Shown here: piece by piece, positions 15,893 to 64,000 of the stretch | Layout: every line of letters starts with the position of its first letter | Position numbering within the stretch: position 1 is the stretch's first letter | Assembly: GCA_000091205.1 (NCBI GenBank) | Contig: AP006502.2 | Direction: 5' to 3' (one strand) | DNA from: Cyanidioschyzon merolae | Lineage: Eukaryota | DNA: 64,000 nucleotides | Translations under genes and position numbers: made by a program | The notes under the pieces: model-generated | Databases searched by the model: none | Seen by the model: only the letters and a program-made list of their open reading frames with translations | Told to the model about the DNA's origin: nothing

Positions 15893-16262
15893 CAAAGGAC
15901 CCGCGATCCCTAGAGGTGGCTATTGCCGTGTTGCACACTCCCTAGGCAAAGCTTGTCTGATCTGAATATATACGCAAAGGATCCGCGATCCTTAAGGGTG
16001 GCTATTGCCGTGTTGCACACTCCCTAGGCAAAGCTTGTCTGATCTGAATATATACGCAAAGGATCCGCGATCCCTAAAGGGTGGCTATTGTCGTGTTGCA
16101 CACTCCCTAGGCAAAGCTTGTCTGATCTGAATATATACGCAAAGGATCCGCGATCCCTAAAGGGTGGCTATTGCCGTGTTGCACACTCCCTAGGCAAAGC
16201 TTGTCTGATCTGAATATATACGCAAAGGATCCGCGATCCCTAAAGGTGGCCACTTTAGCGTC
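15893..16262. repeat. Minisatellite of about 4.4 copies of an 83-bp unit, each carrying AATATATACG, about 150 bp upstream of the POL5-like start codon.
   Basis: The unit caaaggatccgcgatccctaaagggtggctattgccgtgttgcacactccctaggcaaagcttgtctgatctgaatatatacg recurs at 15893, 15975, 16057, 16140 and 16223 with over 95% identity. Confidence 0.9.
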
Positions 16263-16412
16263 ATACTTTCCCTTAGCAAATCGTTTCGATCGATACCCGT
16301 CGCCGTCCGCACACGTCTTTTCGCACGCGAGGCTCCCTGTGCTGCTCCGGTGCAAGGTGCAACCTTTGCGCTTGTGCCGGACTCGTTGACGAAGTTGTGT
16401 GGGTGTCCGGAT

Positions 16413-20124: not shown

Positions 20125-23100
20125 TTATGGTTGGAGAAGCTTGCGTAAGCGCTCCTTGTAGGCGTTGCATTCCATTTCCATTTCTGCGAGGCAGATAAGG
20201 AGCTCGTTGTGTTCTTCTCGAAGACGCCAAAGCTCCGCCTCCATGTCCGCAGCGCGCGGATCCACGTGGACTTGTGTGGCGTCCTGCTCTTGCTCCTGCG
20301 CTTTCACCACTGCCGCACCTGTTGCTGGTACTGCTGCTGATGCTGTTGCGAAAGCTGACGACGGCAACCAGGCGTGCTGCGAGCTGTCAGCACCGGATGC
20401 GTCCAGCTCGTTGACGTGCGTTGCTCGCCAGGGTTGCTGTGGTTGCGCCCGCTTGTCGTGGTGGTGCTGCTCGGCGAGTTGCTTGCGCAGCAACATGTTC
20501 TCATCGTGCACCATTTCGACTGCGCTGGCAAGTCGTGACTCGCGGGCAATGAGTTCCTCGATCTGTTTCTCTAGTTGCGCGATGAGGTCGCGCTGTGCAG
20601 CTGCACTGCTTGGCAACTCTGCCGCCGTCTCCATATGCTGGCTGTGGCTCCCTCTGGTATCGTCGGATGGATGCGCTGGCTCCAGTCGGGGCAGGTTCGT
20701 GTCGGTGAGCGCTTCTCGTGAAGATACCTGGTCGTCGCCGTTGTCGTCGTCGTCGTCGTCGTCGTCGTTGGGTGTCCCAGCAAGCACGCTGGCACGAGTT
20801 CCAGAGGCATTTGGATGCTGGGCGTGCTCCCATGCTGCCAAGCGTGCGCGTAGGGCGCTGATACAGGTCTGAAGACGAATGTTCTCTTGGCGAAGATCGC
20901 CGCTCGCCATGCGTTCTTTCACGAGAGAGCGCTGTAGCGCATCGACGGACGCTGGATCCGCTGCTGGGCCGTCCACATCATATGAAGCGCTGGAATCGTT
21001 TTCGGGACTTGCTCGGTACTGGGTTGTTTCTGGCGCTGATGCTTCGTCGAACGCGCGCTTGTGCGATGACGCAAGCGCAATCGTGCGCAGGTGTTCGATC
21101 TCTTCCTCGAGTTCCTGGAGGACTTGTTCATGGACCCGCATCATTTCACGCATACTGGCCTCGTGCCTAGATTCAAGTTCAGCTAACTGCCGTTCATAGG
21201 CATCGCGGACAAGTTGTACTTGATGGGTATGCTGCTCTCCAGCGAACGCTTTGTCAGCCCTGATCGCTGACTCGGCGTGATCATCATCATCATCATGATC
21301 GTCATCGCCATCGTTATCATCGGGGTCGTGCTCACCATGCATCGCTAGCACCGCAGGAACTGGCTGCGGTGAGCGCTCGTTGCGCCTCGCCTCCGAGTCT
21401 GCGACTTGTTCGGTACCCGTAGCACCAGCTGATAGGATGACAGCGCGGATTTGCGCCTGGAGGTTGTCAAACTCAAGTTCACATTCTTGCAATGTTGCCT
21501 GCTGATCAGTGAGCATATCAAGCTGCCGGTCGATTATGGCGAATTGCTTATCCCTCCAGAAGTGAACGGTCGACGCACATGCACTGACCTCGGATGCGGT
21601 CGCGTCTATCACTCCAGTGATCTGATCCGTAAGCGCTCGTCTCCATCGATGATGCTCCGCTTCGATCATATGGATGCGAGCACAGAGTGCTTCCTGTTGC
21701 TCCTCAGCGGTAGCCAGTCTCTGGTTGGTCTGGTGAAGCTCCGCTACGCACTCATCGTGCGCAAGCTGAGTCTCGGCGTGCTCCGCGAGTACTCGGTCCA
21801 GCTGCGATTGCAGTTCGTGGCTGATTTCCTCGTACTGCTTTTCCGCCGCCAGTGCTTCTTCACGCTCCAGGCCGAGGGCATTTTGCAAGTTCTGCACTTG
21901 ACTCTGTAGGTGCTGTACTTGGTCTTCTCGAGATGCAAGCGTTTCTTGCAAGAGTAAAACCTGAGCGCTAAGTTCCTCCAATTCAGCATCGCGCGTTTCG
22001 CTTTTGGATTCGAGCTCGCGATTTCTCGCTTCCAGTTCAGCAAGTTTCTCCCTATCCGCCTGGGCCTGTTCTAAAGAGATTTCCAACTCCCGTCGTTCAC
22101 TCTCAAGCTCTTCGCACCTTCGCGTGATCGTTCGCATGGAATCCTCCAGATCCTCGAGCCGGCGGCGGTCTCTGGTAGCCGCAGTCAACGCTTCTTCGTA
22201 TTCCTCGATGCGAGTCTGGTAGAGCTGCACCAGCTCCTCGAGTCTCTGTAGCTCTGCAGTTTGTCCGTCGCAGTCTGCATGCTGCTCTCTGAGCACAGTG
22301 AAGCTGTGGGAAACCTGCGCTAGATCTTCCTCCAGAGACCGGATACGCGAGTTCAACAACGCCTTCTCATGTACGTGAGCATCCAGTTCGGATTTCAGAT
22401 TTGTGCATGTTTCCTGAACACTTTCGAGACGACTTGCATGCTCCAGCAGAGAGTCTCGTTCGTCACAGACGTTTCGATATTGGGTTTCGAGTTCTGCGAG
22501 TTGCGTTTGCGCTGCTTGCTGGGCTGCTACCGCATGCCCGAGAGACGCGCATTCGCTCCGAAGCCTGTCTCGTTCGTCACAGACGTTTCGATATTGGGTT
22601 TCGAGTTCTGCGAGTTGCGTTTGCGCTGCTTGCTGGGCTGCTACCGCATGCCCGAGAGACGCGCATTCGCTCCGAAGCCTGTCTCGCTCGTCACAGACGC
22701 TTCGATACTGGGTTTCGAGTTCTGCGAGTTGCGTTTCAGACCGACGCAATTCCGCAAATGCATCCTCTAAACGCTGCCAGGATCCAACAGCATGCGAGAC
22801 AGGCCCTGCCTCGGCATACCCAGGCTTCAGATATCCAAACAGTTTCACCGCAGCGTCCTTGAGCGCACCCAGCGCAAGCCCTTTAATCAGTATCTCTTCC
22901 AGTATCAAAACCTCTACCCTGAACGCACCATAACCAGCAGCACGCTCCCGAGCGATTGCCTGATTCTTTCGCAAGGCATAAGCGAATAGTTCGGGAAGCG
23001 CCTCCAAGGGCGCAACACACGTCCCTACCTCTGGTGCAGTGCAGGCACCGACCGTCGTGCGCTGCAGCGTCATCTTCGCTTCTGCACTCCCGGACAGCAC

Positions 23101-26100
23101 CACAGATGCATCGCTGCCACGCGGGATATGTGCTGGCAGGATTGCGCTACACCGCCAGATGCGGGTACACAATGTATCCACGCGAGCCTCCATGGAGCGC
23201 AACGAGGCCAACACATGGACTAGGTCTCCATCGAAGCGATTGGACAGGTTGTGCAGGGCATCGAGGGCGATGCTGAGACGCCCACTTGCTGTCGTACCAG
23301 CAGCGAGCGCATTCGCCGGTGCAACCTCGCACCGCAAACTGTCCCCTGTTACCCAACGATCGATGAGTGCATCTGGAGGTTGATCAGCACTCGGCACACG
23401 CCCAGATACCACCATTGATGCGACTTGGGCTGCTCGTTCACCGCTCACACGAGACGCTGCCTCGAGCTCCGATTCACTGGGCTGCAGAGCGGCAAGCACA
23501 TCTGTTTGCGTGCCCGTCGAGGCCACGTCAGGTCGCTGGTGCTGGTCGTGCGTCGTCACCCGCTCTGCCGCTGAACGCAACGACGCCAGTTCCGTGCGCA
23601 GCGTATCACGTTCCTGTTCAAGTCGAATAACCTGTTCTTCAAGGATTTGCTGTGTTTCATAGGCATCTTCTTCGGATCGTTCCAACATTTTCTGCAGTGA
23701 AACAAGTTGGGTTTCGAGGTCCGCGATACGTTGCTCTCGGGAGCCTGCGTCGATAGCAGGGTCGAACGATGTATCTGCTCGCAGTACGGTAGCGAATCGA
23801 TCCTCGCTCGAAGAACGCAGAGGCGGTGCCTCACTCGCAGGATAGCGCGGACTTGCGGAGCCGCTGCCGCTAGCGTCTTCAGCGGCACTTTCGATCACTG
23901 CATCTGAGGGTGCCCCGTCAGCCCCAGTATTCGTACGATTTTGGGACTGGATGTAGTCCTCGAGCGCTCGCAACCGCTCTCGCAAGTGCGCATTCTCGAT
24001 TCGCACGAGTTCCGATGCGCTATCCTCGCCTCGCTCTGCATCCTCGAACTGGTTCAGGAGAATCATCAACCGCTCATTCTTCTGCCGTTCTTCGGCGAGT
24101 GCGCGTTCCAATATCCTGACATCAGTGATATCGCATGCTGACGACTCTGACGTCTCGTCGATGTACGCGTGCGCTTCGTTGCTTCGGAAATGATCCGCAG
24201 TCGTTCGCTCCGCGGGATCGCGGAAAACTCCACTATGCACGTGCTGTGCTGGCAGAACGCTCGACCCGTCATCGACGTGTGCACCAGCGTTCCTCAGTTG
24301 CTCGTTCTCTAGGGCGAGCGCTTCGCACGCTTTCGATATCGACTCCACATCGCGCTGGCGGCTCTGTAATGCCTGCTCCAGCGACGCCACCTGTTCCGTT
24401 AGTCGCCGTACCAAATCCTCGCGCTCAGTTAACTGGTCACGAACGAGCCTCAGTTCCTCCCTAAAACGCGACTCTGAGCCGCGCAGAAGCGAATCTGCAT
24501 AATCCTGACTCTCACGAAGGCTCCTGCGGAGCATTTCAACTTCTTCTTTGGATGCCAACAGCGCCTCGTCTTGTTTTCGAATCATTCTTTTGTATTCGTC
24601 GAGCTGAGCCACCATATCCTCGAGTTCTCGGATTCGCATCTGCATGGCTCGAATCTCATTTGATGATTTGTTTGTGGTGTCATCGAAGTGCCGGTTATCG
24701 ATAGATAACGAGCCGGGCGTCGCAAACTCCTTTGCGTTTCGAGGTGACGCACTCACCCCAACCTCAGCGGACTTGAGAGTCGAGCCCTGCATCTCGGTAT
24801 CAGAAGGCGGAACCTCTTGCTCCACATACTCGTGAAGAAGGCGTTTTTGGACGCAGTCATATACAGGCTCCATAATGGAGACAAGTTCTTGAGGAAAGAT
24901 ATACATATGTCCAAGTTCTTCAACTAGACCAGATCCTTGACGGGATTCGGTCGTCAAGACGCCTCTCGCGAAGCGTTGTTCCAGCAGCAGTCCAGGAGAG
25001 CCCGTGATCGCCGCTGCAAAGTATGCCGACGCTCGCACATCATCCAAGTAAGAAGCAAAGCGCATCAGTCCAATGCGTTTCCGCACAATACCGACCAGGG
25101 TTCTTGGCGATATCACCAGCGATTCCGCTTCTGCACACTCGAGTTCCATGCACTCGGCGATCGCCAGCGCTGCGAGGCCGCGGATATGCACGAAGAGCAT
25201 ACCTTCAGCACGGCTTCCCGACGATGAGACCAGGTCCATCAGCAGCGGCACATTCAGCGGTGTGGACAAGAACTTTTGGCGTGCTCTGTCTGAAACATAC
25301 AGCCAACAGCACAGGAGCAGCAACAGCGCTAGTCGCACTAATGGAGGACTGTTTTCGCGCACCGCACGCCCCAACGTACGCAGCAGCTTCATAAACAGAG
25401 GCTCACCTGCTGAGCATTCGCCCGTGAGCGCACCAGCACCTAGGACGACACGATATCTAGATACTGGCATCAGCAGCGGGTCCTGGTCGGCCACCGATGA
25501 ACCCTGAGCACAGCAGCGTACCATCCACGACGCCAACAGCGAGCACGCGTACAATACAGCAGCTGGGTCAGCTTCATCGGGCCAGCCGACAGCAACACCC
25601 AGCAGTTCAGAGACAACGCGCTGGAGCGCATGAGCAGTGCGTTCATCGATCGATTCGACGTCCTTCAATACTTCGGAAGCGTGCGGATTACTGGAGGCGG
25701 GATCGACGGCACCACAAGTCTGACGCTTGTCTGCCAACATCCAGGTGAACCAGCACAAGCCTGATTCGCTTTCCAGCCATACCATAGAAAGAAAGCAGAA
25801 CGCTGCTGCTCGCAGCTCCTGTGATGCGTGCTCCGTCATCATGTCCAACACGAATGCAAGAAAAAGCGTATGCACCTCTTTCCCGTTTGGTGCCCGGCTG
25901 GTACGTGCTTGGCTGGAATCATCGACTTCAGCGACAACAACCCAAAGTCCATGCAAGAATGATAGGGTCGCGACGTGATCTCGAGACAGGCGGCCTAAAG
26001 TCAGAAGACCTTGGACAACGACGGCGTCCGCGTTGCGAGCACTACAAATCAAGCGCGCGATGCTCTCTGTAACACCGTAATGGAGACAAAGTGCTCGAGT

Positions 26101-27489
26101 CCGTGGTTCCTTGTTCGTAGACTCGGCGCGCGACAAGTGATCGACTAAACCAATCGTCAAAATCAGGTTGTCCACTTGCACGGGTCGCAGTGCTTTCGCT
26201 GGATGATCAGCCAGGAACAAGAGCGGACAGAGCTTTGGGATGCAACCAGCCTCGGCGAAGAGCGTCGCGATCGCCGGATCACCATCCAGCAAAATATCCA
26301 TAAAAATCAGACAGTCTCGCGTGACCAAGTCCATGACGTCTGACGTGGACGCCAACACCATCGGTACATGTTGTTGCTGTCGTAGACTCTCGTCGGATGC
26401 AGATGTTCTCGCTAGCGACTCTGACTGCGGGCGGCCGGATGCTGGAAAGCCATCCGTATCATCTGTTTCTGAGTTATCGTCGGCATCGCCGTTTTCAGCA
26501 GGTGCGTATCTCCGAGATATCTGAACCTCATCGCTCTGCTCATCGACATGGACACTGACTTCCTCATAGCGTGCCTTGTCGATCATTTCGAACAAAAGTT
26601 CGAAAATATTTTCAAAAGCAAGTATTCTCTGGATTTCCCCGCTGTTGCGCGAGAGCTCCATGACGAGACGGAGGCCGTAGGTTCGTACCACCTCGCGCGG
26701 GTCCCGCAGTAAATCCATCATTCGCGAGACTCCTCGCGGGCAGCGAAGAACGGCTTTCTGTAATGGTGGCAGGGCATGCCTCGCGATATGCGTCAGCAAG
26801 TCGGACACCTGAAGCCGAACGGAGTAGTCACCGTCTGCGAGCAAGTCGAGCAGGCACGGTACAAGACCCAGTCCCGCTCGCTCGGAAGCGGTGACGGGTG
26901 GACTGGCGGCACCGAGCATCATAGACACAGCGGTGCGTATCGTGGACGCTGTGTCGGCACTCCACTTCCGCCAAATGTCTTCGTTTCGGTGCAACGGCGC
27001 AACGGCTTCCTTCGATTGGCAGCTGGTATTGCTTCGACGTCGCACGAGCGAACGCCTCTCTGAAGAGGCGGCCTGCGTGCTGTCCTCGAGCGAGCCCGCA
27101 AGACTCACGGTCGGCGCACAGAGAAGCAGTTGTAGCAAAGCGAGCGTACTTTGGATAAGTTCAGACTCCGTCCTGTCCTGCTCGAGGATAGCTCCCAGAA
27201 GAGGCACGCCCTTCGTTACCAACTCTTCCCGGAGGCTCAGCGCGACCCGCAGCGCTTCTGAGACCTCGTCACAGGCATCAGCATCAGCCTGCTCTAAGAG
27301 CTCGGCGACCTTATCGTCTGCCGCAGTCACCCGTCGGAGCAGGACCTCGACACACTGGAGACGTTCAGAGGGAAACCGCCCACAATGCAGCCGGTGTATA
27401 ATCAGGTCGAGCGCTTCTGTAACACCAGAGGTGGCCGGATTACGGTCAGCTCCAGCAACGTAGCGCGCTGCCTTGGTGATCAAGTTCAT
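20125..27489 (-). CDS. USO1: USO1/p115-like vesicle-tethering golgin of 2454 aa. An N-terminal armadillo-like head is followed by a very long coiled coil with poly-Asp tracts and three perfect 38-aa repeats.
   Basis: The N-terminus ...LGAILEQDRTESELIQSTLALLQLLL parallels the p115 head motif LQTDRSDSEIIGYALDTLYNI. The C-terminal two thirds is heptad-rich (LAELETQYRNVCDERDRLRSE...). DDDDDDDDD tracts are encoded by (GTC)n around 20742-20767 and 21283-21300. The ATG at 27487-27489 was verified. Confidence 0.65.
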   Translation of the reverse strand: MNLITKAARYVAGADRNPATSGVTEALDLIIHRLHCGRFPSERLQCVEVLLRRVTAADDKVAELLEQADADACDEVSEALRVALSLREELVTKGVPLLGAILEQDRTESELIQSTLALLQLLLCAPTVSLAGSLEDSTQAASSERRSLVRRRSNTSCQSKEAVAPLHRNEDIWRKWSADTASTIRTAVSMMLGAASPPVTASERAGLGLVPCLLDLLADGDYSVRLQVSDLLTHIARHALPPLQKAVLRCPRGVSRMMDLLRDPREVVRTYGLRLVMELSRNSGEIQRILAFENIFELLFEMIDKARYEEVSVHVDEQSDEVQISRRYAPAENGDADDNSETDDTDGFPASGRPQSESLARTSASDESLRQQQHVPMVLASTSDVMDLVTRDCLIFMDILLDGDPAIATLFAEAGCIPKLCPLLFLADHPAKALRPVQVDNLILTIGLVDHLSRAESTNKEPRTRALCLHYGVTESIARLICSARNADAVVVQGLLTLGRLSRDHVATLSFLHGLWVVVAEVDDSSQARTSRAPNGKEVHTLFLAFVLDMMTEHASQELRAAAFCFLSMVWLESESGLCWFTWMLADKRQTCGAVDPASSNPHASEVLKDVESIDERTAHALQRVVSELLGVAVGWPDEADPAAVLYACSLLASWMVRCCAQGSSVADQDPLLMPVSRYRVVLGAGALTGECSAGEPLFMKLLRTLGRAVRENSPPLVRLALLLLLCCWLYVSDRARQKFLSTPLNVPLLMDLVSSSGSRAEGMLFVHIRGLAALAIAECMELECAEAESLVISPRTLVGIVRKRIGLMRFASYLDDVRASAYFAAAITGSPGLLLEQRFARGVLTTESRQGSGLVEELGHMYIFPQELVSIMEPVYDCVQKRLLHEYVEQEVPPSDTEMQGSTLKSAEVGVSASPRNAKEFATPGSLSIDNRHFDDTTNKSSNEIRAMQMRIRELEDMVAQLDEYKRMIRKQDEALLASKEEVEMLRRSLRESQDYADSLLRGSESRFREELRLVRDQLTEREDLVRRLTEQVASLEQALQSRQRDVESISKACEALALENEQLRNAGAHVDDGSSVLPAQHVHSGVFRDPAERTTADHFRSNEAHAYIDETSESSACDITDVRILERALAEERQKNERLMILLNQFEDAERGEDSASELVRIENAHLRERLRALEDYIQSQNRTNTGADGAPSDAVIESAAEDASGSGSASPRYPASEAPPLRSSSEDRFATVLRADTSFDPAIDAGSREQRIADLETQLVSLQKMLERSEEDAYETQQILEEQVIRLEQERDTLRTELASLRSAAERVTTHDQHQRPDVASTGTQTDVLAALQPSESELEAASRVSGERAAQVASMVVSGRVPSADQPPDALIDRWVTGDSLRCEVAPANALAAGTTASGRLSIALDALHNLSNRFDGDLVHVLASLRSMEARVDTLCTRIWRCSAILPAHIPRGSDASVVLSGSAEAKMTLQRTTVGACTAPEVGTCVAPLEALPELFAYALRKNQAIARERAAGYGAFRVEVLILEEILIKGLALGALKDAAVKLFGYLKPGYAEAGPVSHAVGSWQRLEDAFAELRRSETQLAELETQYRSVCDERDRLRSECASLGHAVAAQQAAQTQLAELETQYRNVCDERDRLRSECASLGHAVAAQQAAQTQLAELETQYRNVCDERDSLLEHASRLESVQETCTNLKSELDAHVHEKALLNSRIRSLEEDLAQVSHSFTVLREQHADCDGQTAELQRLEELVQLYQTRIEEYEEALTAATRDRRRLEDLEDSMRTITRRCEELESERRELEISLEQAQADREKLAELEARNRELESKSETRDAELEELSAQVLLLQETLASREDQVQHLQSQVQNLQNALGLEREEALAAEKQYEEISHELQSQLDRVLAEHAETQLAHDECVAELHQTNQRLATAEEQQEALCARIHMIEAEHHRWRRALTDQITGVIDATASEVSACASTVHFWRDKQFAIIDRQLDMLTDQQATLQECELEFDNLQAQIRAVILSAGATGTEQVADSEARRNERSPQPVPAVLAMHGEHDPDDNDGDDDHDDDDDHAESAIRADKAFAGEQHTHQVQLVRDAYERQLAELESRHEASMREMMRVHEQVLQELEEEIEHLRTIALASSHKRAFDEASAPETTQYRASPENDSSASYDVDGPAADPASVDALQRSLVKERMASGDLRQENIRLQTCISALRARLAAWEHAQHPNASGTRASVLAGTPNDDDDDDDDNGDDQVSSREALTDTNLPRLEPAHPSDDTRGSHSQHMETAAELPSSAAAQRDLIAQLEKQIEELIARESRLASAVEMVHDENMLLRKQLAEQHHHDKRAQPQQPWRATHVNELDASGADSSQHAWLPSSAFATASAAVPATGAAVVKAQEQEQDATQVHVDPRAADMEAELWRLREEHNELLICLAEMEMECNAYKERLRKLLQP
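22453..22795. repeat. Three tandem copies of a 114-bp coding repeat (38 aa, QTQLAELETQYRNVCDERDRLRSECASLGHAVAAQQAA) inside the golgin coiled coil.
   Basis: gtctcgttcgtcacagacgtttcgatattgggtttcgagttctgcgagttgcg... recurs at 22453, 22567 and 22681 with near-perfect identity. Confidence 0.9.
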
Positions 27490-37544: not shown

Positions 37545-38154
37545 CTATTCGGCTAAGACGATCGTACATACCGACTTGTCATTACCAGAGCGCATGCGGA
37601 GTTGCTTCCGTATCCGGGTATCAAAGCAGCCTGTTCTTTGCGTTAAGGGCTCGGACAATGCCCAGCGAAACATTGAATGTCCCACGACGGTAGAGTGTAT
37701 AAAGACACCCGCGCGCAGACGCTTCCCAACGTTTCTGGACCCACCGACTGCTATCGGTTTCAATTTCTCTTTGCAAACTTGGAGCTTGAGAGGATGTCCC
37801 GCAAAGTTGGCTGGTACCAGCTCCCCGGGTTTCGTTTTCAGCACCGCACATCGTCGGATGCCGTTGACGTGTCGGTTCACGAACTGCATGCGTTTATTGC
37901 ATCTGATGGAACTCACCATTGCAAGGATTCCTAGAACTAGCGCCCTCTGTGCCACTACAGCCTTGTCATCGTCCGGTCGGGCAAACACCTTTTCTTGTCT
38001 GTCTCTCATCGTCATCTTCTTCCTCGTCACGTGCTTATCTTCGCTCGATGGTCGGCGAGATGAGGATTTTTTCGTTTTTTCGGCAGCCGGTGGCGGCGGT
38101 CCTCATGGTTCCCAACTGTCATGTCCATACGTTTCCCACGTCTTTTATATTTGA
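37545..38154 (-). mobile_element. Relic fragment (copy c) of the TnpB/Fanzor-like element, with a degenerate RuvC-III region and 3-prime module, lying just 3-prime of the RPS5 gene.
   Basis: Minus ORF 37545..38030 contains CNKRMQFVNRHVNGIRRCAVLKTKP, a decayed version of VNRD-NAA-NI-RCAVL. Its DNA aligns to copy a (positions 150-420), and an MCGAENETRGAG peptide in frame 37621..37851 parallels MCGAEDETRGAG in copy a. No intact domains remain. Confidence 0.45.
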
Positions 38155-43289: not shown

Positions 43290-45206
43290 TCAAACTTTAT
43301 ACAGCAAATCCATGTACGAAAGCAACAGGTCTGATACGACACCGCGCGCTGGCATGGTCCCGCCTAGCCCATAAATAGGCGCCATGCCTTCGGTTTTTCC
43401 GGTTCGGTTGGAACGGTCGAGTTCTAGATTGGACTTGACGCAGTCGCTGAGATCGCTGAGGAAGCGTTCGATGACACCTGGTGCACAGTGCCGCAGTGTC
43501 AAGCAGATGTGAATACAAGGTGGGCGATGCAGTCCATTCAGCGACCAGCCGCGATCACTCATCGCGTCCAGAACCCTGTAAATATTGAGCGTACTCGGGT
43601 CGGCAGCTGCCAACGCGATCACCCAAAGCGGAGCACCGAGGATGCGCAGGTCCGGAATACGCGCCCTGATGCCGGTTTTGAGTGCATGTGCAGCCCGAAA
43701 GATGGCGTCCGTCGCATGCATGTAGCCGTCCTCGCCCATGCGAAGCATAGAGGCCCAGCAGGCAGCAATGAGACCTCCCGGTCGACTCCCTGCGAACGTT
43801 GGCGAATAATAAAGACCGCCACTCCAATCCGTGAGGGTGAAAAATTGATAGCGACGCCACTCTGGAGTAGCGTACAGGATAACACTGGTACCTTTGGCGG
43901 CGTATCCGTACTTGTGCGTGTCCACAGATATCGAGGTTACTCCTGGGACGCGAAAATCGATGCAAGGAACCTGCAGGTCTCGTAGATGCGGGGCATCCGG
44001 TCGCAACTTTTGCAGCATTTCCAGCCATGGCAAAACAAATCCACCGAGGCAGGCATCCACGTGGAATCCGACTCGTCGCTTCTGTGCGATCTCTGCGAGG
44101 TCCTCGATCGAATCAATGACACCATGTGGGAACTGAGGCGCTGAGCCCACAATCAAAACGGTATTGCGGTTCACGAGTTTGCGCACGTGCTCCACCTTGA
44201 CTCGGAAAGTTTCCGGATTTACGGCGGCGATTCGCAAGCGCAGGTTGAAATATTGAGCCGCCTTGTAGAAGGCCGCATGGGCCGTGCTAGGTATAATGAT
44301 CTCTGGACGTGTGATGCGTCGCTCTGCACGGCCCCAGTCACGGTACGTTTTGCATGCAAGGAGGATGCTCTCGGTACCGCCGGAAGTGACCACACCGCAG
44401 GCTTGTGGTCCCCCGTGCAGCATGCTCGCCGTCATCCGCACAATCTCCGCCTCAAACTTGATGCACGAAGGCCACACATCAGCATGGAGAGGGTTCAGAT
44501 GCGTTGTCCGTGCATACACGTTCGATAGGAACTCGGCGTGCGCTCGATCCCCCGAGTAAACTGCGCCACTGACAAAGCCTTGCTCCCATTTAGGTGCCTC
44601 GCATTCTATCATTCGATCGAGGTCGGCGAGAATCTGTGTTGGCGCTCGACCCTCTGCGGGAAGACGATCAAAAGTCGGAACAATTCCCCTGTAGGGATGA
44701 ACGACAGCGTCCATGGGTTCAAGCGACTTGGCGTAGGCTGATCGAAGTCGCTGGGCGAGAGTCGGCAGCCAGCGCGTTGCCTGACGGTAGAGGAAGGAAG
44801 CCATTCGCTCGGGAATCCAGGGAAGGAGACGCTCCAAAAGGTCATTCAAGCGTGTTTTCCAGCTTATTTGTGACTCAGATAAGGAGTGAACACTGTTCTC
44901 AACCGAGGCAGTCGCCATAACACTACGAGCTGCGGCTCCAGTACCTACGTGCGAAGGCGCAGCGTCTGGAGTGCACGCTTCACCAAGCGCAGAACCCGAA
45001 CAAGAGCATTCGCTCGCAGCTATTTGCCAGCCGTTGTTCGTCACTGCAGGTGCCTGCGTGTTCCAGTTGAGTCGCGTGCCTGTGGCGTTCGTGCTGGTGG
45101 GCGTCTCGGTACCCTGCTCTGACCGCGCGGCTGCCGAAGGCGACCCCTCGGGCCCGGAATCCTCGCAGGATACACGCCGAGCTTCCACCGCGAACTCCTC
45201 AGTCAT
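43290..45206 (-). CDS. SGPL1: Sphingosine-1-phosphate lyase, a PLP-dependent group II decarboxylase-fold enzyme.
   Basis: Motifs SGGTESILLACKTYRDWGR, GFHVDACLGGFVLPW, SISVDTHKYGYAAKGTSVILY and an N-terminal TM-like segment match the SPL/Dpl1 family; the K in THKYGYA is the PLP lysine. The ATG at 45204-45206 was verified. Confidence 0.85.
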   Translation of the reverse strand: MTEEFAVEARRVSCEDSGPEGSPSAAARSEQGTETPTSTNATGTRLNWNTQAPAVTNNGWQIAASECSCSGSALGEACTPDAAPSHVGTGAAARSVMATASVENSVHSLSESQISWKTRLNDLLERLLPWIPERMASFLYRQATRWLPTLAQRLRSAYAKSLEPMDAVVHPYRGIVPTFDRLPAEGRAPTQILADLDRMIECEAPKWEQGFVSGAVYSGDRAHAEFLSNVYARTTHLNPLHADVWPSCIKFEAEIVRMTASMLHGGPQACGVVTSGGTESILLACKTYRDWGRAERRITRPEIIIPSTAHAAFYKAAQYFNLRLRIAAVNPETFRVKVEHVRKLVNRNTVLIVGSAPQFPHGVIDSIEDLAEIAQKRRVGFHVDACLGGFVLPWLEMLQKLRPDAPHLRDLQVPCIDFRVPGVTSISVDTHKYGYAAKGTSVILYATPEWRRYQFFTLTDWSGGLYYSPTFAGSRPGGLIAACWASMLRMGEDGYMHATDAIFRAAHALKTGIRARIPDLRILGAPLWVIALAAADPSTLNIYRVLDAMSDRGWSLNGLHRPPCIHICLTLRHCAPGVIERFLSDLSDCVKSNLELDRSNRTGKTEGMAPIYGLGGTMPARGVVSDLLLSYMDLLYKV

Positions 45207-45493
45207 TTTCCGCGGACAGTTCCGTTACACCTCCTAGAAAAGAAGGCAATACCAAACTACGTTGAACAGACGGCAGCCGCGCACACCTGTTCGTTTTTGT
45301 TTCCAGTAGCAGCACGTTTCCATGGACCATGGATCCCAGATTGCGGGGTGGATGGATATTGTCTTTCGGGAAAGCGTCCATCGTGATGCATCCTGCCTTA
45401 TCGTTGCATTCCTCGTGATTCCTCTCTGATATACTGGTCGTTGCGTATGTTGTATGGTGCGCCATACCTACTTTGTACACCCCGCACAAGCGT

Positions 45494-46651
45494 TTAAACT
45501 ACTGGAGCGGATGCTGCAAGGCATGCACGGTCACTCGATAGAGTATACGAATCGACCAGTATATCCGAGAAGAAGCATGGGCTATGGGACTCGGAAGTAG
45601 ATGGAATGATGGACGTCTTCCCGCGCATGGCCACACCAAACGCCGTTCGAAAGTCGAACGACGCCAACGGTGTACAGTAGTGGCGGGAAAACCGCGCCCT
45701 AGACAAAACGTCTCCAACTGACGTCCAGACGCCTCCCGCCTTTTTGGACCGGTCACCTACTACTGATTCCAATTCTTTCTCATATAAATCGACTTTGAGT
45801 GATTGTCCAATAAAGTTCTCTCTTGTCAGCTCTGGAGGTCTTTCCTCCAGCACCGCACATTTCCTCATATTGATTGCGGCATTAAAGTCTCGGTTCACGA
45901 GCTCCATCCGTTTCTTGCCATCACTGGTTGTACTTACTAATGCGAGTAGTCGACGAACTTTCGCCCTCCATTCCATTTGCTCTTCCTTCAGCGGTCCGTA
46001 CTTTGCTATTTCCTCAGGGCTCCTCTGGCACTTTTCCATCTCGGCCCTTTGAAGTGTGCACCCCAGTTCATGGTGTGTATACGATGTCCGAAACTCATCT
46101 ATTGGTATCGTAACAGAACGCCCTGCGCACTCCTTGTACACCCTCGTCGTTGGAGCTGGCGTAGTTCCTTTTTGTGTCTTCCAGCACCCTGCTCTGTACG
46201 CTAACACGAGCCTTTGAGTCTTGTCCTCTTTGAGGGCACTCAACTCATTGAAACAATTCGCGAATGCCCGCGGCTTCCCACAATACAAATTCATTCGTAA
46301 ACGTGCCCACCGGGGCTTGGTATACTCCTTCCACAGCGTATCCCAATGCGCCATGCGAACTTCCATGAATTTCCGAAAGGCTTCAAAGTCCGCTCCTCGG
46401 TTAGTCACGTCGCTCAAAGCTTCCAGGTGATCTTTCATTCCTGAATTCCACGTCTCAATTTTCTTTCTCGTATTCATGATTCCCGATTCTCGATAGTATC
46501 TCGCTCTCGAGAACCTCAAAAGACGCATGTGTTTCTGACGTAAGTTACCATCAGCACCATCTTCCGCACGCTTGGGTACAGCGATGGTTACGATATTCGT
46601 ATTCCCAGGGTCCGCGCCAACGACAAAGTCGTTATCTTGCACTTTCTGCAT
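45494..46651 (-). pseudogene. RuvC-domain portion of the copy-B TnpB/Fanzor-like gene; its ORF reads through the ancestral stop into the 3-prime module.
   Basis: Copy C terminates 9 codons after RCAVV (TAG at 60732-34), whereas copy B has CAG at the aligned position and continues more than 100 codons into sequence that is conserved non-coding in the other copies. Confidence 0.55.
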
Positions 46652-47130
46652 CGCAGGATCCGCCTTCTTGTTTTCTTAATGCTTCGTCGCGTCAACGACA
46701 AGGTCGTTATCTTGCACCTCCTGCATCACAGGATCCGCCGTCTTCTCATCTTCATCCTTCGTAATGTCAACAACAAGGTCGTTATTCTCTACCTCCTGAG
46801 TCGCAGGATCCTCTTCTTTGTTTTCTTCATGCTTCGCCGCGCCAATGATAAAGCCGTTATCCTGCACCTCCTGCGTCGCAGGATCCGCCGTCTTCTCATC
46901 TTCATCCTTCGTAATGTCAACAACAAGGTCGTTATTCTCTACCTCCTGAGTCGCAGGATCCTCTTCTTTGTTTTCTTCATGCTTCGCCGCGCCAATGATA
47001 AAGCCGTTATCCTGCACCTCCTGCGTCGCAGGATCCGCCGTCTTCTCATCTTCATCCTTCGTAATGTCAACGACAAAGTCGTTATTCTCTACCTCCTGAG
47101 TCGCAGGATCCTCCTCTTTGTTTTCTTCAT
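46620..47130. repeat. Perfect 150-bp tandem array (two 75-bp half-units; about 3.4 units) inside copy B. It encodes [25 protein letters not shown] / [25 protein letters not shown] and duplicates the segment just N-terminal to RuvC-I.
   Basis: tcttctcatcttcatccttcgtaatgtcaac recurs at exactly 46741, 46891 and 47041. The repeat peptide [17 protein letters not shown] parallels the native [20 protein letters not shown] that opens the RuvC-I block. Copy C has only one unit. Confidence 0.9.
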
Positions 47131-49822
47131 GCTTCGTCACGGGTGCAGCCGAGGGTGGAACTGGACGATCTTTCTTCAACCGCCGATAGTGTACACACAT
47201 GGCTACGCCATCGGTTTCGATCATCCCAGTGAATACCTTTTGTTTGCTGACTTTGAGACGTTTGAAATCGAAGATACTCTTCCAGTACGTCTCCCGGTTT
47301 TCACGGATGAAGTCCTCCCTGCTAACATTGAACCCCGGACTGATCTCCTTCATGATGCCGTAAAGGACGCCTGAATCGATACTCACAAAATACTACTTGA
47401 TGTTGCACAACGGAACCACGTTTAACTGCTTCCCCATTAGGAAAGCCTTCCGTCTCTCCCACTCTTCATTTGTCTCTTCACTCAGCTTCATCTCCGCCTT
47501 GCGTTCGAGTTCACGATTCAGAAACACAAAATAGCGCAGGATGAGGCGATAGTACCTTTCCTTATCTTTTTTTAACTCTGACACCTTTTCTGTTGGATTC
47601 GGTAGCCCCATGACTGCGCCGTGCTCTTGCATAGCCGCACGGATTACAGAAGCTTCATTCGTGCTCTCGTTTGACGCCTTCTTCTCGAAAAATTCGACCT
47701 CATCTTCATGCCTGCGATCTTTCGTGATGGCATCGATAATCGCCCATATCCCCTTGCGTGAGATTCCCGGGTACAGCGCAAACACGGCGCGTATCATGAA
47801 ACGTTCGAGGTTCATCGTCAAATGGTTCTTCAGGTTCGTCAGGTACTTGATGGCCCCGTATTCGTAAATATCCGCGTCACCTGTATACCGAGTACCATCG
47901 AAGCTGTAAAAGAGATGTTTTTCGTGCAGGACGTGCACCCGCTCATTTCCCCTCCGCGCTTCCGCTGTACCAATCGTCATGTGACGAATAAAGGTCTCGT
48001 CGGAAACTCGTTCGGAAGCTCGACTGTTTCCATGTGCGTCATTTCGCGATACATCTCCCCGCCAAATGCACTAGTCCTGACGACACCTTTATTATAGTCA
48101 TGGAGTTCGGCTCAACACGGTTTCGGATGGACTCTCGTAACTTTTTCTTGCACGGAACCTTGATCTGTCCAAGAAGACAGGCTTTCATAACCAGTTCGTT
48201 GTAGTGTGGTCTTTCTTGCAGCCATCGACGTAGGACCTCCCTCCTTTCGGTCCTTCTTCTCTTCCTTTTCTTCTGGACTCGGTACTGTTTTTTGTTTTTT
48301 CTGGCAGCCAGCGACACTTGGCCTCCAGGATCGTCGACTTGGTTTTTGATAACATTTCCTTTTTTATTTTTCTTGAAAAAGAGCGCTCTTTGAACGCTTC
48401 TCCTATAAACCGCGAAAAAGGACTTGAATACACTTATTTGAGGGTTGAAACACGATTCAACTGAAAACTGCAGTTTGCTACGACTTCAACGGAAATAGAA
48501 CTTTTACTTTACTGCTGGATCATAAAGGTTTGGATCGTGTCTCCCTTCAACGGCGACAAGCGCGTCATATCTCATGACTGCCAGATCTCCCAGGTGCGCG
48601 TCTCAACCGCGCTATTTAGAAAAAAAGGAAAGAGACTCACGATTCACGAGCAACGAGCTATCGATTTCTTTCCCCGTCTACATGAAACATTAAAAGGGGG
48701 AAATTTTTTCCGCATGTCCGAAAGTTTAACGTCTAGGCGGAAAGTCGCGCGGGCCGAACGAGTCTGCCAGGCTCGTGCTTCATGCCCCTCCCAGCGGCGG
48801 GTTCTTGAAAGAAACCTGTGCTACTCGTCCACAAAGCAATTCATTCTGGGACTAGGGACAGTTAAGCTGCATCTGGGCATCGCCCTGGTCGCAGTGGACT
48901 CCTAGGATATCGATTCGCGCTGTCGCAGGCAGTAGGTCTGCCAGCGTAGCTTGCAGGCTCCCAGAATGATCATGAACCTCGACCCTGATTCAGCCGTAGC
49001 ATTCCTCGAGTCGATGCGCTCTCTTGTATGGCATGTCGGTTCTCTCTGTCCATGCTGCGACCGCGCCGCCGCTATAGGCGCTATCGCGGACGCTCGCGAC
49101 GGGCAGTCGGCACACGGTCGAACTTGAAAATAATCGGTACCTCCGAGGGAACGTATGGGAAGCGGAACTTGCGAGGAGGGCGCGGAACGATGGAAACCCC
49201 ACAACGCGCGGTTACCGAGCACGCTCTCAGGGATTGCTGCTCTGTGGGTCAACGTTTCGTCCAACGAAAAGGAATCGAGTGTGTCCTTCACGCGCGCCGC
49301 TAGGCAGGTACACTCAACTCGTTCAGTGGTAAAGACGTTTTTCCGACGGTTCACTCGATATATCACAACGCATTGCGAAAATGAGTTGTCACTGACGTGT
49401 CCGTGGACCAGCCAGTTCATGTGCCGTATATGCGCTTTTTCTCAACAGATAGGTGAACGACCTTCCAGGTCCGTGTGGTGCTGTCGAAAGCGTTCCCGTC
49501 GAAACGGTACACATATGATCAAAGCGGGCCTGTTTGGAGGCATTCTAGATGCAGCTCTGGATATTGATCGTAGCTATGTAAATAGTATCCTTGCGAGAGA
49601 GCAGCCTGGCACCGCTGCCGCAACGGCAACCTTTGAATCTTGAACACTCATTCCAGTTTTAGATCAAATTTGACACCCGTCACTGGACGGCCATCGACGC
49701 CTGTCTCAGACGCTTCATCACCGCCGCCACCGACGCCGCTGGGTACCACCGAGCGCTGTACGCTTCAGCGCTCATCTGTGTCTACGACAAGGCGAGCTGC
49801 ACCGGCGCTCGGAACTCGTTCC

Positions 49823-60479: not shown

Positions 60480-62940
60480 GTTCGGGGTGATTGTTTCCGA
60501 ATTGAGGGTTGCGATTTTTATGACGACGACGCCAGCGACAGCAAATGTCTTCCAAAGAAAACGTTGCTGCCAGCGGCGCACAGTAGTGGCGAGTGACCCG
60601 CCCTAGACAAGACGTCTCTAGCTGATGTGCAGACGCCTCCCGGTCTTAATGGACCGGCCACGTACTACGGCTTCCAATTTCTTCTCATATTGATCTACTC
60701 TGCAGGATTGTCAAACAAAGTTCCCTCTTGTCTACCCAGGAGGTCTCGGCTCCACCACCGCACATCTCCGTATATTGATAGCGGCATTCAAGTCTCGATC
60801 CACGAATTCCATACATTTTTTGCCGTCGTTGGTTGAACGTACTAATGCAACTAGTCCTCGAACGTTCGCCCTCCTTTCCATACGCTCCTCCGTCAGCGTT
60901 CTGTACATTTTGACATCCTCGGGACTCCTATGGCACTTTTCCATCTCGAATCTCTGGAGAGTACACACCAGCTCATAGTGTGTATACGATGTTCGGAACT
61001 CATATACAGGTATCGTAACGAGACGCCGTGCGCACTGCTTGTCCACCCTCGTCGTTGGAGCTGGCGTAGTTCCTTTCTTCGACGCTCATCGCCCTGCTCC
61101 GTATGCTACTCTGAGCCTTTGACTTTCATCCTCCTTCAGGGTACTCAACTCATTGAAACAATTCGCGAACGCTCGCTGCTTCCCACAATACGAATTCATA
61201 TGCAGACGAGCCAACCGGGGATTCGTATACTCCTCCCACAGTACATCCCAATGAGCAATGCGAACTTCCATAAATTTCCGAAAAGATTTAAAGTCTGCTC
61301 CTCAGACGGTCACCTCGCCCAAAGCTTCCACGAGATCCTTCATTCCTGTGTACCAAGTCTCGATATTCTTCCCCGCATTCGTTATACGAGATTTTCGATA
61401 GTATGTCGCTCGCGAGAACCTCAAAAGACGCGTATATTTCTGGTGCAAGTTGCCGTTGGAGCAATCTTCCGCATGCTTGGGTACAGCGATGGTTATGATA
61501 TTCGTGTTCTAGGAGTTACTACCAACGACAAAGACGTTCACGTGGGGATTACACGTCCCCTGGCCGTTCTACTTCTTTCCGTGCATCGGTATGGGCGATA
61601 ACGAAGACGGGATAGGACGAAGTACATGCAACCGCTAATAATGTACACATCTGTATACGCCATCGCTATCGATGGTCCCCGTGAGTACTTTTTTTGACCG
61701 GTTTGGGGCGTTTGGAATCGAAATAGTTCTCCCAGCAGGTGTTCCGGTCTTCGCCGGTTACCTCTTTGTTGCTTCCATCGAGCTCAGGACAGATCTCTAT
61801 CATGAAGGCAGAGAGAACTCTGGGGTCGATATTCACAAAACATGACTTGAACTCGCATAACCGGCCGACAATGAAACGCTTCTGGAGAAGACTTCAATGT
61901 CGTTTCTTCCGTCCGTGATTTTTGCCACACTCAAATCCATATCGGCCTCGCGTTCGGGTTCTCGGTCCAAAAAAATGAAGTACGGCAGGATAAAAGGGAT
62001 AAATCTCTCTTCGTCTGCCTTTGATCATACCTGACAGTTTCTCCCTTGAGATGACAAGCCCCGAGACTGAACGAAGTTCTAAACTAGCGGCGCGGATAGC
62101 AGAAGCAGAATTCGTCGACTTGCATGATGTGCTCTTGTCGACGAATATGATCTCCTGTTCATGCTAGCGAGCGTTCTTGAGAATATCGATGATTGGCCGC
62201 ATCCCTTCGCGAAAAAGGCTCGCGTACAGCACAAAGCGGGCGCCTATCGTGAAAAAGACGAAAGATAAGATTTTTTGGTTCCTCGCATTCGTGAGGCAAC
62301 TCAATGCCCTGTATTCGTATCTTTTTACGTCACACCGATGTCCAGCACCATTGACGCGGTAATTGTCGTAAATTGTGAGGGGGGCATCAGCCAGCTCATT
62401 GCTCTTTGATGCTTCCCCATTGCGAGGACTCAGGTGGTTGAAGAAAGTCTTTTTGAAAAATAATTCCGGAAATATCACTTTTGCGATATGCGTTACGTCG
62501 TGATGCAGCTCGATCTGCAAATGCGTCAGTCCAAAAGAAAAGTTACGACCAGACCTGGAGTGCGAATCTACGCGGTCTCTGATAGCGTCTAGGAGCATTC
62601 AGTCGTACGGATAATTGATATGCTGGAGACGACAGGATCACACAACCATATCGTCGTACGGACATCACTCTTGCAGCCTTCGTGGTAGCGCCTCCACATC
62701 TAACTTCTTCTTTTTTCCCTACTCCTCGGAAATAGCTACTACGTCTCGTTTTTTTTCCAATATTCGGCATCCCCGGTCATCCACAACACAACACGTCCAG
62801 TTCCATAAGTGAAAGATGTTTTGGGAGAAAAACTCATCGGACGCTTGTGCGTAGAGCGGCGAATATCGGTTGAATACATTTACTTGAAGATTGAAATACC
62901 ATTGAAGCCAAAACAATACTTTGCTAGGATCCGATCGCAA
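60480..62940 (-). mobile_element. Degenerate TnpB/Fanzor-like element, copy C (subtelomeric), homologous to copy B along its length but fragmented by frameshifts and carrying a single repeat unit.
   Basis: ORF 60732..61046 reads EFRTSYTHYELVCTLQRFEMEKCHRSPED...MEFVDRDLNAAINIRRCAVVEPRPPG. ORF 61086..61271 (MEVRIAHWDVLWEEYTNPRLARLHMNSYCGKQRAFANCFNELSTLKED) matches the copy-B peptide MEVRMAHWDTLWKEYTKPRWARLRMNLYCGKPRAFANCFNELSALKED. ORF 62164..62598 matches the copy-B N-terminal segment. DNA homology with copy B runs from about 60540 to 62935. Confidence 0.55.
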
Positions 62941-63883
62941 GTACAAGAGGCCCCGATAAAGCAGTCGCTCAAGAAGAGGTCATTACCGCGTTTCTATTGA
63001 TCGGCGAGGCGCACGTCGGGTGACGAGACGGCCAGAATTCGCGATGCGTTACTATGGCACACGACATAGAAAATGCCAACTAGTAAATGATATACACAAA
63101 CGGGATAGCAAGTAATATCGCCACCAACCTGAAACCTTAAAAGGAAGAAGTTTTTGCGTATGGCCACACTGTTAGATTAAGCGGAAGGTCTGCGAGCCGC
63201 GAAACCCAACCGGCCAGTCCCCCGTGTGACCCTTCAGTGGCGGGTGATGCGCCGCACCTAACCACCCCAACCGAACGCATTTGATTGTGGAATCATGAGC
63301 GGGTATGCTGCATCAGAATCTCACTTTGGGCAAGGCGGACTTCCAATACAAAACTCCGCGCTATACCAGGCAGAAGAGCTGGAATTAGAGCTTGGAGGCT
63401 TCCAGAAATATAAATAGCACTGATTCCGTGTTGCATGAAACAAGCATCAACCGACGCGCTCAGTAGTATGTGAAAGCTACTGTGCTCCCCAAGAGCATCA
63501 GCACCAGCGATGGAGAAACTTCGGAGGGTGCAGACGGCAGGCATCCGGCGCAGAATAAAAGCGTGAAACGACCAGCAAAGCCGAGAGTAAGTAAAAGCGA
63601 TGCAATGCACAGAGATTGTTCAGCACGATAAAGGATTTTACGAACCAAAAAGACGAAGCGGCGATCTCAGCCATCTGATCAGTGGAAAAATTCTGCAAAC
63701 CAGTAAAAGCAAAACGTCCGAAGTAAATTCCCGATGAATTTGGTATATAATCTATGTCGCGGTAACAGATGCGAAAAAGCCCAGATCGTGCCGCGAGAAG
63801 TGATACACTTGTGGGAAATGAAATAATACACGTCGCTATCAAAGATGCTTTCGCACTAAGATCATCAAACCTATGTGAAACTG

Positions 63884-64000
63884 GGGGAACGGGCGGAGCG
63901 GGGGGAACGGAGGGAACGGGGGGAACGGAGGGAACGGGGGGAACGGGGGGAACGGGAACGGAGGGAACGGGGGAATGGAAGGAATGGGGGGAATGGGGGG
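63884..64000 (+). repeat. Telomere-like G-strand repeat array at the window end: irregular GGGGGAACG / GGAGGGAACG units grading into AATGGGGGG.
   Basis: gggggaacgggcggagcggggggaacggagggaacggggggaacgg...gggggaatggaaggaatggggggaatgggggg runs to the last base, with the G-rich strand 5-prime to 3-prime toward the end. AATGGGGGG is the telomere unit I recall for cyanidiophycean red algae. Confidence 0.6.

Follow-up and report, generated by a model that had tools for sequence, protein, structure and literature searches.

Four TnpB-like gene copies lie within the 64,000-nucleotide stretch of Cyanidioschyzon merolae DNA analysed here (contig AP006502.2; hereafter the window), and they raise the question of whether the sequence that they share at their 3′ ends specifies a guide RNA. 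A preliminary description had proposed that a conserved non-coding module at 45560–45830 is the scaffold of an omega-RNA, the guide RNA of TnpB and Fanzor systems, and at the same time the right end of the element. The idea of a scaffold at the 3′ end of the gene has survived the present analysis, but the sequences put forward for it, the stem, the account of the stop codon and the part assigned to two relic copies have not. The module that we favour, at little more than even confidence, as the omega-RNA scaffold of the CMe-1A Fanzor1 is a shorter one that begins at the stop codon and would also form the element's right end.

The copies in the window are assigned to Fanzor1, the eukaryotic TnpB, as pseudogenes of the CMe-1A family, because a profile (A7) built from the window open reading frame (ORF) and diverse relatives matches the solved structures of PpFz1 from Parasitella parasitica (9CF0, E=2.3e-20) and of GtFz1 from Guillardia theta (9CER, E=1.6e-5), and because the RuvC motifs are present. 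CMe-1A was described by Bao and Jurka (2013, PMC3627910) as a C. merolae Fanzor1 family of about 150 copies, some 3 kb in length and about 80% identical to their consensus. It carries one Fanzor1 ORF, has no terminal inverted repeats (TIRs), shares its 5′ 635 bp with the short repeat TE-N2_CMe, and was left without a class (PMC3627910). Copies B and C are placed in this family since host, size (about 3 kb), divergence (about 80%; copy identity 73–87%), the single Fanzor1 ORF, the lack of TIRs and a 5′ module shared with a solo repeat all agree; the match is to the published description rather than to the Repbase consensus itself. Neither a repeat search of the window nor a dedicated comparison of ends found a TIR or an inverted repeat between the left and right ends. 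The published account leaves the ends, the target-site duplication and the RNA undefined (PMC3627910), and it is here that a right-end boundary, a fold for the tail and the omega-RNA interpretation are added.

The copies and their parts are as follows.

45699–47980, minus strand: remnant of the copy B Fanzor1 ORF, recognised by translation, alignment with 23 homologues and profile match
48560–49180, minus strand: copy B 5′ module with an approximate left boundary, in agreement with the TE-N2_CMe-like 5′ 635 bp (PMC3627910)
60603–62930, minus strand: copy C, a decayed CMe-1A Fanzor1 pseudogene; the whole copy, right end included, spans about 62930–60530
180–540, minus strand: relic a, the RuvC-III and C-terminal coding fragment of a more divergent copy
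37699–38030, minus strand: relic c, a fragment of the same type (RuvC-III and C-terminal part)

Relatives for comparison came from an exhaustive HMMER search (1430 relatives), from a search of protein collections (259 relatives, mostly 70–85% identical and mostly from a few Joint Genome Institute (JGI) metagenomes) and from a scan of metagenome contigs (80 loci). The approximately 70 related copies that were aligned derive from hot-spring metagenomes.

The coding end of the gene and the module beyond it

The similarity among the four copies is real, but most of the stretch at 45560–45830 is coding. The shared sequences were found where they had been reported, both as repeat families in the window and in a four-way alignment. 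The core CAGACGCYTCCC matches exactly at 197, 37716, 45726 and 60630, and a further match with one mismatch occurs elsewhere; about 0.8 matches would be expected by chance, and five were reached in none of 100 shuffles. Rather than being non-coding, the flagged stretch holds the last 43 or so codons of the minus-strand ORF. The sequence from RuvC-III to 45702 can be read as coding because 24 homologues end in ...VVGGRSKKxGRRLHVSWRRFV*, because the consensus translation of 59 independent copies ends in ...GGRSKKTGRRLHVSWRRLV*, and because the variability of the last 66 codons (0.117, 0.101 and 0.169 for the first, second and third codon positions) is of the coding type. The core CAGACGCCTCCC, which reads GGGAGGCGTCTG on the gene strand, encodes G-R-R-L. 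Relics a and c do retain this core, as had been noted (the exact matches at 197 and 37716), but they retain it as codons. What is common to all four copies is thus the coding part, and the true post-stop tail occurs in copies B and C only; a covariance model of the tail detects no module at either relic. The basic patch at the C-terminus may be nuclear localisation signal-like.

Other particulars change with this partition. The GGACCGG/CCGGTC stem is a loop-less palindrome within the codons GGC-CGG-TCC (G-R-S), from which no hairpin can form. Copy B was thought to have lost its stop codon, but the TAG is intact at 45701–45699 and is merely out of frame through a deletion of one nucleotide (AAAAAGG-CGGGAGG in copy B, AAAAAGACNGGGAGG in the family). 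Because this deletion shifts the frame, the annotated ORF of copy B runs on to 45494. Copy C, in turn, has a private nonsense change (TGG to TAG) four codons before the family stop, which lies at 60605–60603. A TAG at the family stop position is retained in 33 of 74 copies. At the opposite edge, 45633–45560 is not part of the element: across 70 copies the conservation breaks down here, and from about 45627 downward the flank belongs to another dispersed repeat.

The non-coding module of copy B consists of the TAG (45701–45699) and about 65 nt that follow it, down to 45634 on the minus strand. It comprises two stem-loops, SL1 and SL2, joined by a linker, and its parts and surroundings, with the module of copy C, are these.

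45702–45830, minus strand: coding C-terminal tail, ...RPPELTRENFIGQSLKVDLYEKELESVVGDRSKK-G-RRL..SWRRFV, which holds the core at 45726–45737 and the GGACCGG palindrome
45737–45740, minus strand: deletion of 1 nt, private to copy B and a metagenomic allele (L002)
45701–45713, minus strand: possible weak hairpin P0, AGAC-GUUUU-GUCU, seen in alignments; it overlaps the stop and the codons just before it
45699–45701, minus strand: family-consensus stop TAG, kept in copy B, out of frame
45682–45698, minus strand: SL1, GGCG(C)GG-UUUU-CCCGCC, 6 bp
45672–45681, minus strand: linker ACUACUGUAC, predicted to be mostly unpaired; 45673–45672 also open SL2
45633–45673, minus strand: terminal SL2, with outer helix ACACCG/UGGUGU, a 2-nt bulge and inner helix GGCGUCGUUCGA-CUU-UCGAACGGCGUU
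45614–45632, minus strand: flank past the right end, specific to copy B; predicted guide segment GGCCAUGCGCGGGAAGACG...
60530–60607, minus strand: module of copy C, variant V2; covariance-model match of 45.5 bits, fold of -27.8 kcal/mol

In SL1 the outer four base pairs (GGCG/CGCC) are nearly invariant, and the inner pairs and the loop vary. The linker ACUACUGUAC is the best conserved non-coding stretch, with a variability of 0.03–0.14 per site. The 3′ arm of SL2 contributes the last bases of the element (GGUG). Copy C has SL1 and the linker as in copy B, but an additional helical segment, UGGCAGCAA/UUUGCUGUC, makes its SL2 longer. Its outer helix, GCGCCG/UGGCGU, differs from the ACACCG/UGGUGU of copy B by one double change (A-U to G-C) and by one change of A-U to G-U. 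Across the family, SL2 occurs as variant V1, CGUCGUUCGA-CUU-UCGAACGGCG, or as variant V2, ...CAGCAACGUUUUUC-UUUU-GAAAGGCGUUUGCUG...; the two differ at 7 of 23 apical positions and pair in another register, and both give long stems that reach the end of the element.

Two further complementarities were noted. In many family copies CAGUAGUGG (45758–45766, in the A-V-V-G codons) is perfectly complementary to CCACUACUG (45675–45683), and their pairing would enclose SL1; the variants at these sites are only disruptive or wobble, and this long-range helix is unsupported. A coding segment of copy B, GTGTACACTATCGGCG, is complementary at 13 of 16 positions to the conserved tail motif CGCCACTACTGTACAC, which is near chance level. 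It lies at homologous places in copies B and C (47181–47196 and 61633–61648, minus strand).

The boundary of the element emerges from an alignment of 70 copies that extends from 200 nt before the stop to 450 nt after it. Conservation ends sharply about 60–68 nt past the stop, where column occupancy falls from about 0.95 to about 0.2. A nearly universal TT follows the inner hairpin, and of 49 independent copies 26 have a GGTG no more than 22 nt from the hairpin foot, compared with 7.7% of control windows. Because GGTG lies near the hairpin foot and the flanks beyond it are unrelated between copies, the right end of copy B is placed at about 45634/45633. A conserved boundary followed by copy-specific sequence had been named as a mark of a guide RNA; this is indeed what is found, but it is true of any transposon end and discriminates weakly.

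Within the window the covariance model recovers copy B at 45634–45703 (85.9 bits) and copy C. A weak match at 12635–12689 on the minus strand (15.1 bits, rough E=0.01), inside a 913-aa ORF of the opposite strand, is probably due to chance. Over 81 loci (about 375 kb), nearly all matches lie directly after a Fanzor1 stop. Four extra matches, at the metagenomic loci L038, L044, L049 and L058, are the ends of a second, neighbouring copy, which in three cases lies upstream in the same orientation.

Guide scaffold, transposition signal or inherited relic

The interpretation of the module as an omega-RNA scaffold is suggested because its position, size and two-hairpin layout match those of published Fanzor1 scaffolds. 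In SpuFz1 a scaffold of 75 nt lying between stop codon and right end is followed by a guide of 14–15 nt, and the RNA of GtFz1 overlaps 17 codons (Saito et al. 2023, PMC10432273). Fanzor1 omega-RNAs have an SL1 of 7 bp and total lengths of 75–90 nt, and those of SpuFz1 (90 nt) and PpFz1 (75 nt) place a single SL2 beside the guide (Xu et al. 2024, PMC11423790). Yoon et al. report that a conserved stem-loop flanks the guide in every case examined. CMe-1A belongs to the same protein family, and its module resembles the RNAs of SpuFz1 and PpFz1 in having a scaffold of about 65–75 nt, a short first stem-loop (6 bp, published 7 bp) and then one stem-loop that would abut a flank-derived guide; the comparison sets the fold predicted in copy B, copy C and most other copies against published descriptions of Fanzor1 RNAs, not against structures. 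The differences are also plain. The RNAs of SpuFz1 and PpFz1 are known experimentally, whereas that of CMe-1A is predicted from sequence, and there is no sequence similarity between them. The Spu-1 element has inverted repeats of 30 nt, the right one of which is spanned by the omega-RNA, whereas CMe-1A is without inverted repeats.

If the parallel holds, a sense transcript would run through the right end into the flanking DNA and would be trimmed to the scaffold and about 15–20 nt of flank. In copy B that flank would extend from 45632 downward, so that the predicted guide starts at 45632 with GGCCAUGCGCGGGAAG..., and the flank-derived segment would direct Fanzor1 to matching DNA beside a target-adjacent motif (TAM). 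The guide role of 45614–45632 is thus predicted from the Fanzor1 literature, and transcription, processing, protein binding, guide use and a TAM would be expected for the copy B module by the same analogy.

It is also conceivable that the tail acts solely as DNA, its hairpin and terminal motif being read on a single strand by an HUH-type or rolling-circle transposase supplied in trans. It would then resemble the right ends of Helitron, IS91, Replitron or IS200/IS605 elements and would yield no guide RNA. IS200/IS605 right ends have guide and cleavage sites arranged around a hairpin, and the order CACC, hairpin, GGTG in CMe-1A, with its measured enrichment of GGTG, is reminiscent of that arrangement. 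The ends do not resemble those of Helitrons: canonical members have 5′-TC and CTRR-3′ termini and insert at AT or TT, whereas CMe-1A shows neither terminus and its right end closes in GGTG or GGYGT. A sharp right-end boundary with a subterminal hairpin, the lack of TIRs in the window repeats, in the comparison of ends and in the published description (PMC3627910), and a constant 3′ end joined to at least three alternative 5′ modules would all suit transposition through a single strand. So would the head-to-tail neighbours at L038 and L058, where the next element begins, with its 5′ module, 5–14 nt past a right end.

The Chlamydomonas Fanzor1 elements CRe-1,2,3, which are non-autonomous Helitron2 elements with 3′ hairpins (PMC3627910), provide a precedent for a role of this kind. 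They share with CMe-1A the status of non-autonomous Fanzor1 carriers, the 3′ subterminal hairpin and the combination of intact 3′ ends with variable or truncated 5′ ends, but differ in that CMe-1A has no shown similarity to Helitron termini, no asymmetric terminal inverted repeat and no identified RepHel partner. The CMe-1A element encodes Fanzor1 only and no transposase, and no partner has been identified, the genome not having been searched for one. Wobble pairs of the G-U type and the sense-strand bias of the fold described below suit RNA at least as well as DNA, and the size and two-hairpin layout agree with those of Fanzor1 omega-RNAs.

Since both roles normally coexist on one sequence in TnpB and Fanzor systems, a DNA signal is better seen as a complement to the guide scaffold than as an alternative. 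ISDra2, an IS200/IS605 element, illustrates the point. Its TnpB omega-RNA (also called reRNA) is made from the nuclease gene's 3′ end together with the right end, takes its guide from the flank, and shares its right-end hairpin with the transposition signal in the DNA. It differs from CMe-1A in that the bacterial scaffold overlaps the ORF extensively and includes a pseudoknot, whereas the CMe-1A structure lies almost wholly after the stop, and in that ISDra2 has a Y1 transposase partner whereas none is known for CMe-1A. We regard a purely DNA-level signal as unlikely. A combined scheme, in which CMe-1A moves as single-stranded DNA through an HUH-type or rolling-circle mechanism and the hairpin serves both as transposition signal and as omega-RNA stem, is distinctly improbable as a whole; if true, eukaryotes would have their own equivalent of the TnpA/TnpB arrangement.

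A further explanation is that the tail has no function of its own, its conservation reflecting the shared ancestry of an old family and its hairpins being accidental. Copies are about 80% alike throughout and all of them are pseudogenes, and the tail is on average no better conserved than the coding part, being more variable than third codon positions (0.216 versus 0.169). Within the tail, however, conservation is very uneven: stems and linker vary by 0.02–0.15 per site, loops and spacers by 0.4–0.57. The two hairpin variants, moreover, differ in sequence, yet each retains a long stem that extends to the element's end.

Folding is also far better than in shuffled sequences and in the coding control. 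The copy B tail scores z=-2.3 against shuffles as RNA (136 nt) and z=-3.3 as DNA (81 nt). Over 49 independent copies, which are nonetheless related and so are not independent trials, the sense strand has a mean minimum free energy of -28.2 kcal/mol, compared with -21.4 kcal/mol on the antisense strand, and is the better of the two in 45. The mean z of these tails is -1.7, compared with +0.8 for a coding control of equal length 120 nt upstream, where the strands differ by just 1.8 kcal/mol.

Covariation, which the preliminary description had offered as a check, with a lack of compensatory changes as grounds for refutation, gave a divided answer: such a lack is seen within V1 and is overcome only once the second variant is included. 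Within V1 alone (28 sequences), 81.8% of cells are paired, compared with 33–60% in slid controls, but covariation is not above that of shuffles (81.8% versus 81.3% for paired cells, for example), as expected from shared ancestry. When the second hairpin variant joins in a covariance-model alignment of 66 distinct sequences, covariation rises to 0.172, compared with 0.133 in shuffles (reached by none of 500) and 0.045–0.091 in slid controls, although values from a structure-fitted alignment of related sequences are biased upward. In the same alignment 54 double-change cells are seen where shuffles give 26.6, and 51 further pair types where they give 41.7 (0 of 500). The outer helix is more stable when a copy is combined with its own downstream sequence than when it is given one from another copy (-7.15 versus -6.54 kcal/mol; permutation p=0.009). 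A tail without function of its own seems rather improbable to us; the structure appears real and maintained across sub-lineages, and the statistical case for this is moderate, not strong.

That the tail is the 3′ untranslated region of the Fanzor1 mRNA, with motif and hairpins for 3′-end formation or stability, is very improbable: it does lie directly after the stop on the sense strand, and its UGUAC-containing linker could conceivably be a processing signal, but conservation ceases right at the edge of the transposon, whose final bases pair within a hairpin. Omega-RNA scaffolds and the ends of transposons typically look like this and polyadenylation regions do not, and the pairing of the final bases is left unaccounted for by this explanation.

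The omega-RNA interpretation has its own difficulties. The high average variability of the tail, the failure of V1 alone to exceed shuffles and the upward bias of the positive test weigh against it, and so do the following results. RNAalifold, applied to a structure-blind MAFFT alignment of the 49 tails, recovered no more than 3 bp of SL1, since the hairpins of V1 and V2 do not lie in the same register. When whole tails were folded as chimeras, a copy's own downstream segment did no better than those of copies with the same variant. An Rfam scan of 45300–46100 returned a chance-level match only. Among 74 related copies none has a full-length open ORF, the longest open frame being 551 codons. 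Searching the 81 loci with the covariance model disclosed no ORF-less ghost copies, unlike SpuFz1, for which Spu-1 has many. An attempt to define the left end failed on at least three alternative 5′ modules and ragged starts of homology, and the TAM is likewise undefined. Finally, a role as RNA and a role as single-stranded DNA both fit the same data.

The Fanzor1 protein and the decay of its copies

All three parts of the RuvC site can be recognised in copy B. The DPG motif of RuvC-I is present as GADPGNTN, and D14, P15 and G16 are invariant or nearly so among diverse relatives. RuvC-II is present as DEFRTSYTHHE, a glutamate followed by [TS][TS], and RuvC-III as NRDFNAAIN, of the form RDxxxxxN; E186, R254, D255 and N261 are conserved in the A7 alignment. 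The spacings between the motifs agree with the motif of Bao and Jurka (PMC3627910). The C4 zinc finger between RuvC-II and RuvC-III is degenerate, with just HHxxxC...x9...C to be seen.

Standard searches were less informative. The Pfam TNB domain (PF07282) gave a weak match, below cut-off, in distant relatives only, and a Pfam scan of the ORF pieces gave none. A profile restricted to the family found no match in the PDB, and the broader profile was required. AlphaFold2, run on the 385-aa ORF with a shallow alignment, produced a poor model (predicted local distance difference test score 47). For the N-terminal part of several homologues (P0012, P0014, P0025 and others) a match to PF26935.1, presumably a newer Pfam family, is precomputed; rescanning with Pfam gave no match.

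Decay is advanced. The frame of copy B is broken by two in-frame stops (47395–47393 and 46678–46676) and by a -1 frameshift near 45738. Tandem repeats of 75 bp that encode acidic units lie just upstream of RuvC-I in the copy B ORF (46543–47141); family members have from none to about five such units, and one of the in-frame stops of copy B is a change of GAA to TAA inside a repeat. Their broken frames mark copies B and C, and likewise each of the metagenomic copies examined, as pseudogenes. Because no copy examined keeps a full open frame, present-day function is doubtful unless intact copies exist elsewhere, and Bao and Jurka state that intact CMe-1A copies do exist (PMC3627910). In the copies described here the right-end module probably persists as a relic, or could be used in trans only.

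Setting of the copies and significance

The window has a GC content of about 55% and long, uninterrupted ORFs, in keeping with this alga. The ORF next to copy B (43290–45206, minus strand) encodes sphingosine-1-phosphate lyase, identical to XP_005539562.1 of C. merolae 10D. Tandem 9-nt repeats of the GGGGGGAAT/GGGAACGGG type occupy 63867–64000, up to the end of the window, and look like degenerate to canonical telomeric repeats. Because such telomere-like repeats close the window, it probably adjoins a chromosome end, in which case copies B and C and the relics would be subtelomeric. Two other tandem repeats were noted, one of 82–83-bp period with five units at 15833–16287, and one of 114-bp period with three units at 22453–22794, inside a 2454-aa ORF (20125–27489).

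A solo version of the copy B 5′ module, with about 66% identity, lies at 15296–15717 on the plus strand, which fits the published TE-N2_CMe. Elsewhere in the family at least two other 5′ modules are seen, and the junction lies at a small, conserved hairpin (GCGCTCAGTGAGCGC, or GCGCG..CGCGC) near 48615–48595. Elements that are neighbours head to tail are found in L038 (135–202 and 3447–3514), L058 (1–41 and 3447–3514) and L044 (241–305 and 3378–3445). In L038 and L058 the gap of 5–14 nt is followed by the same 5′ module (TCGATGTACGGGTTAGG...). Such pairs could reflect an origin of the rolling-circle type, a preference for insertion beside an existing end, or duplication of a dimer.

Abutting the right end of copy B is a 49-nt inverted repeat (45407–45455 and 45538–45586), whose arms are 76% complementary and 82 nt apart. 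The arms were considered as TIRs of a larger carrier transposon. This was rejected because the core motif, ACGACCAGTATATCCGAGA, which is found again near 26 of the 81 related loci, has no fixed place there and occurs in either orientation. The inverted repeat therefore belongs to a separate dispersed repeat, possibly similar to a miniature inverted-repeat transposable element.

The CMe-1A family has been known since 2013 and Fanzor1 omega-RNAs since 2023–24; what is new is the predicted CMe-1A scaffold and its corrected coordinates. No link between an omega-RNA and C. merolae was found in the literature covered; the supplements covered, those of the 2023 Nature paper, do not include this organism. 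For annotation, the value of the present analysis is that most of the stretch first flagged as a module can be treated as coding sequence of pseudogenised copies. The layout is the expected one rather than a new kind of system, and it leaves the current picture of Fanzor biology unchanged. If the RNA is confirmed, the one Fanzor1 family reported from red algae would gain an omega-RNA and a precise right end, in a host whose genome is very small, fully sequenced and genetically tractable. Work on the still unclassified CMe-1A family could then address where the element ends, what it targets and whether it may home.

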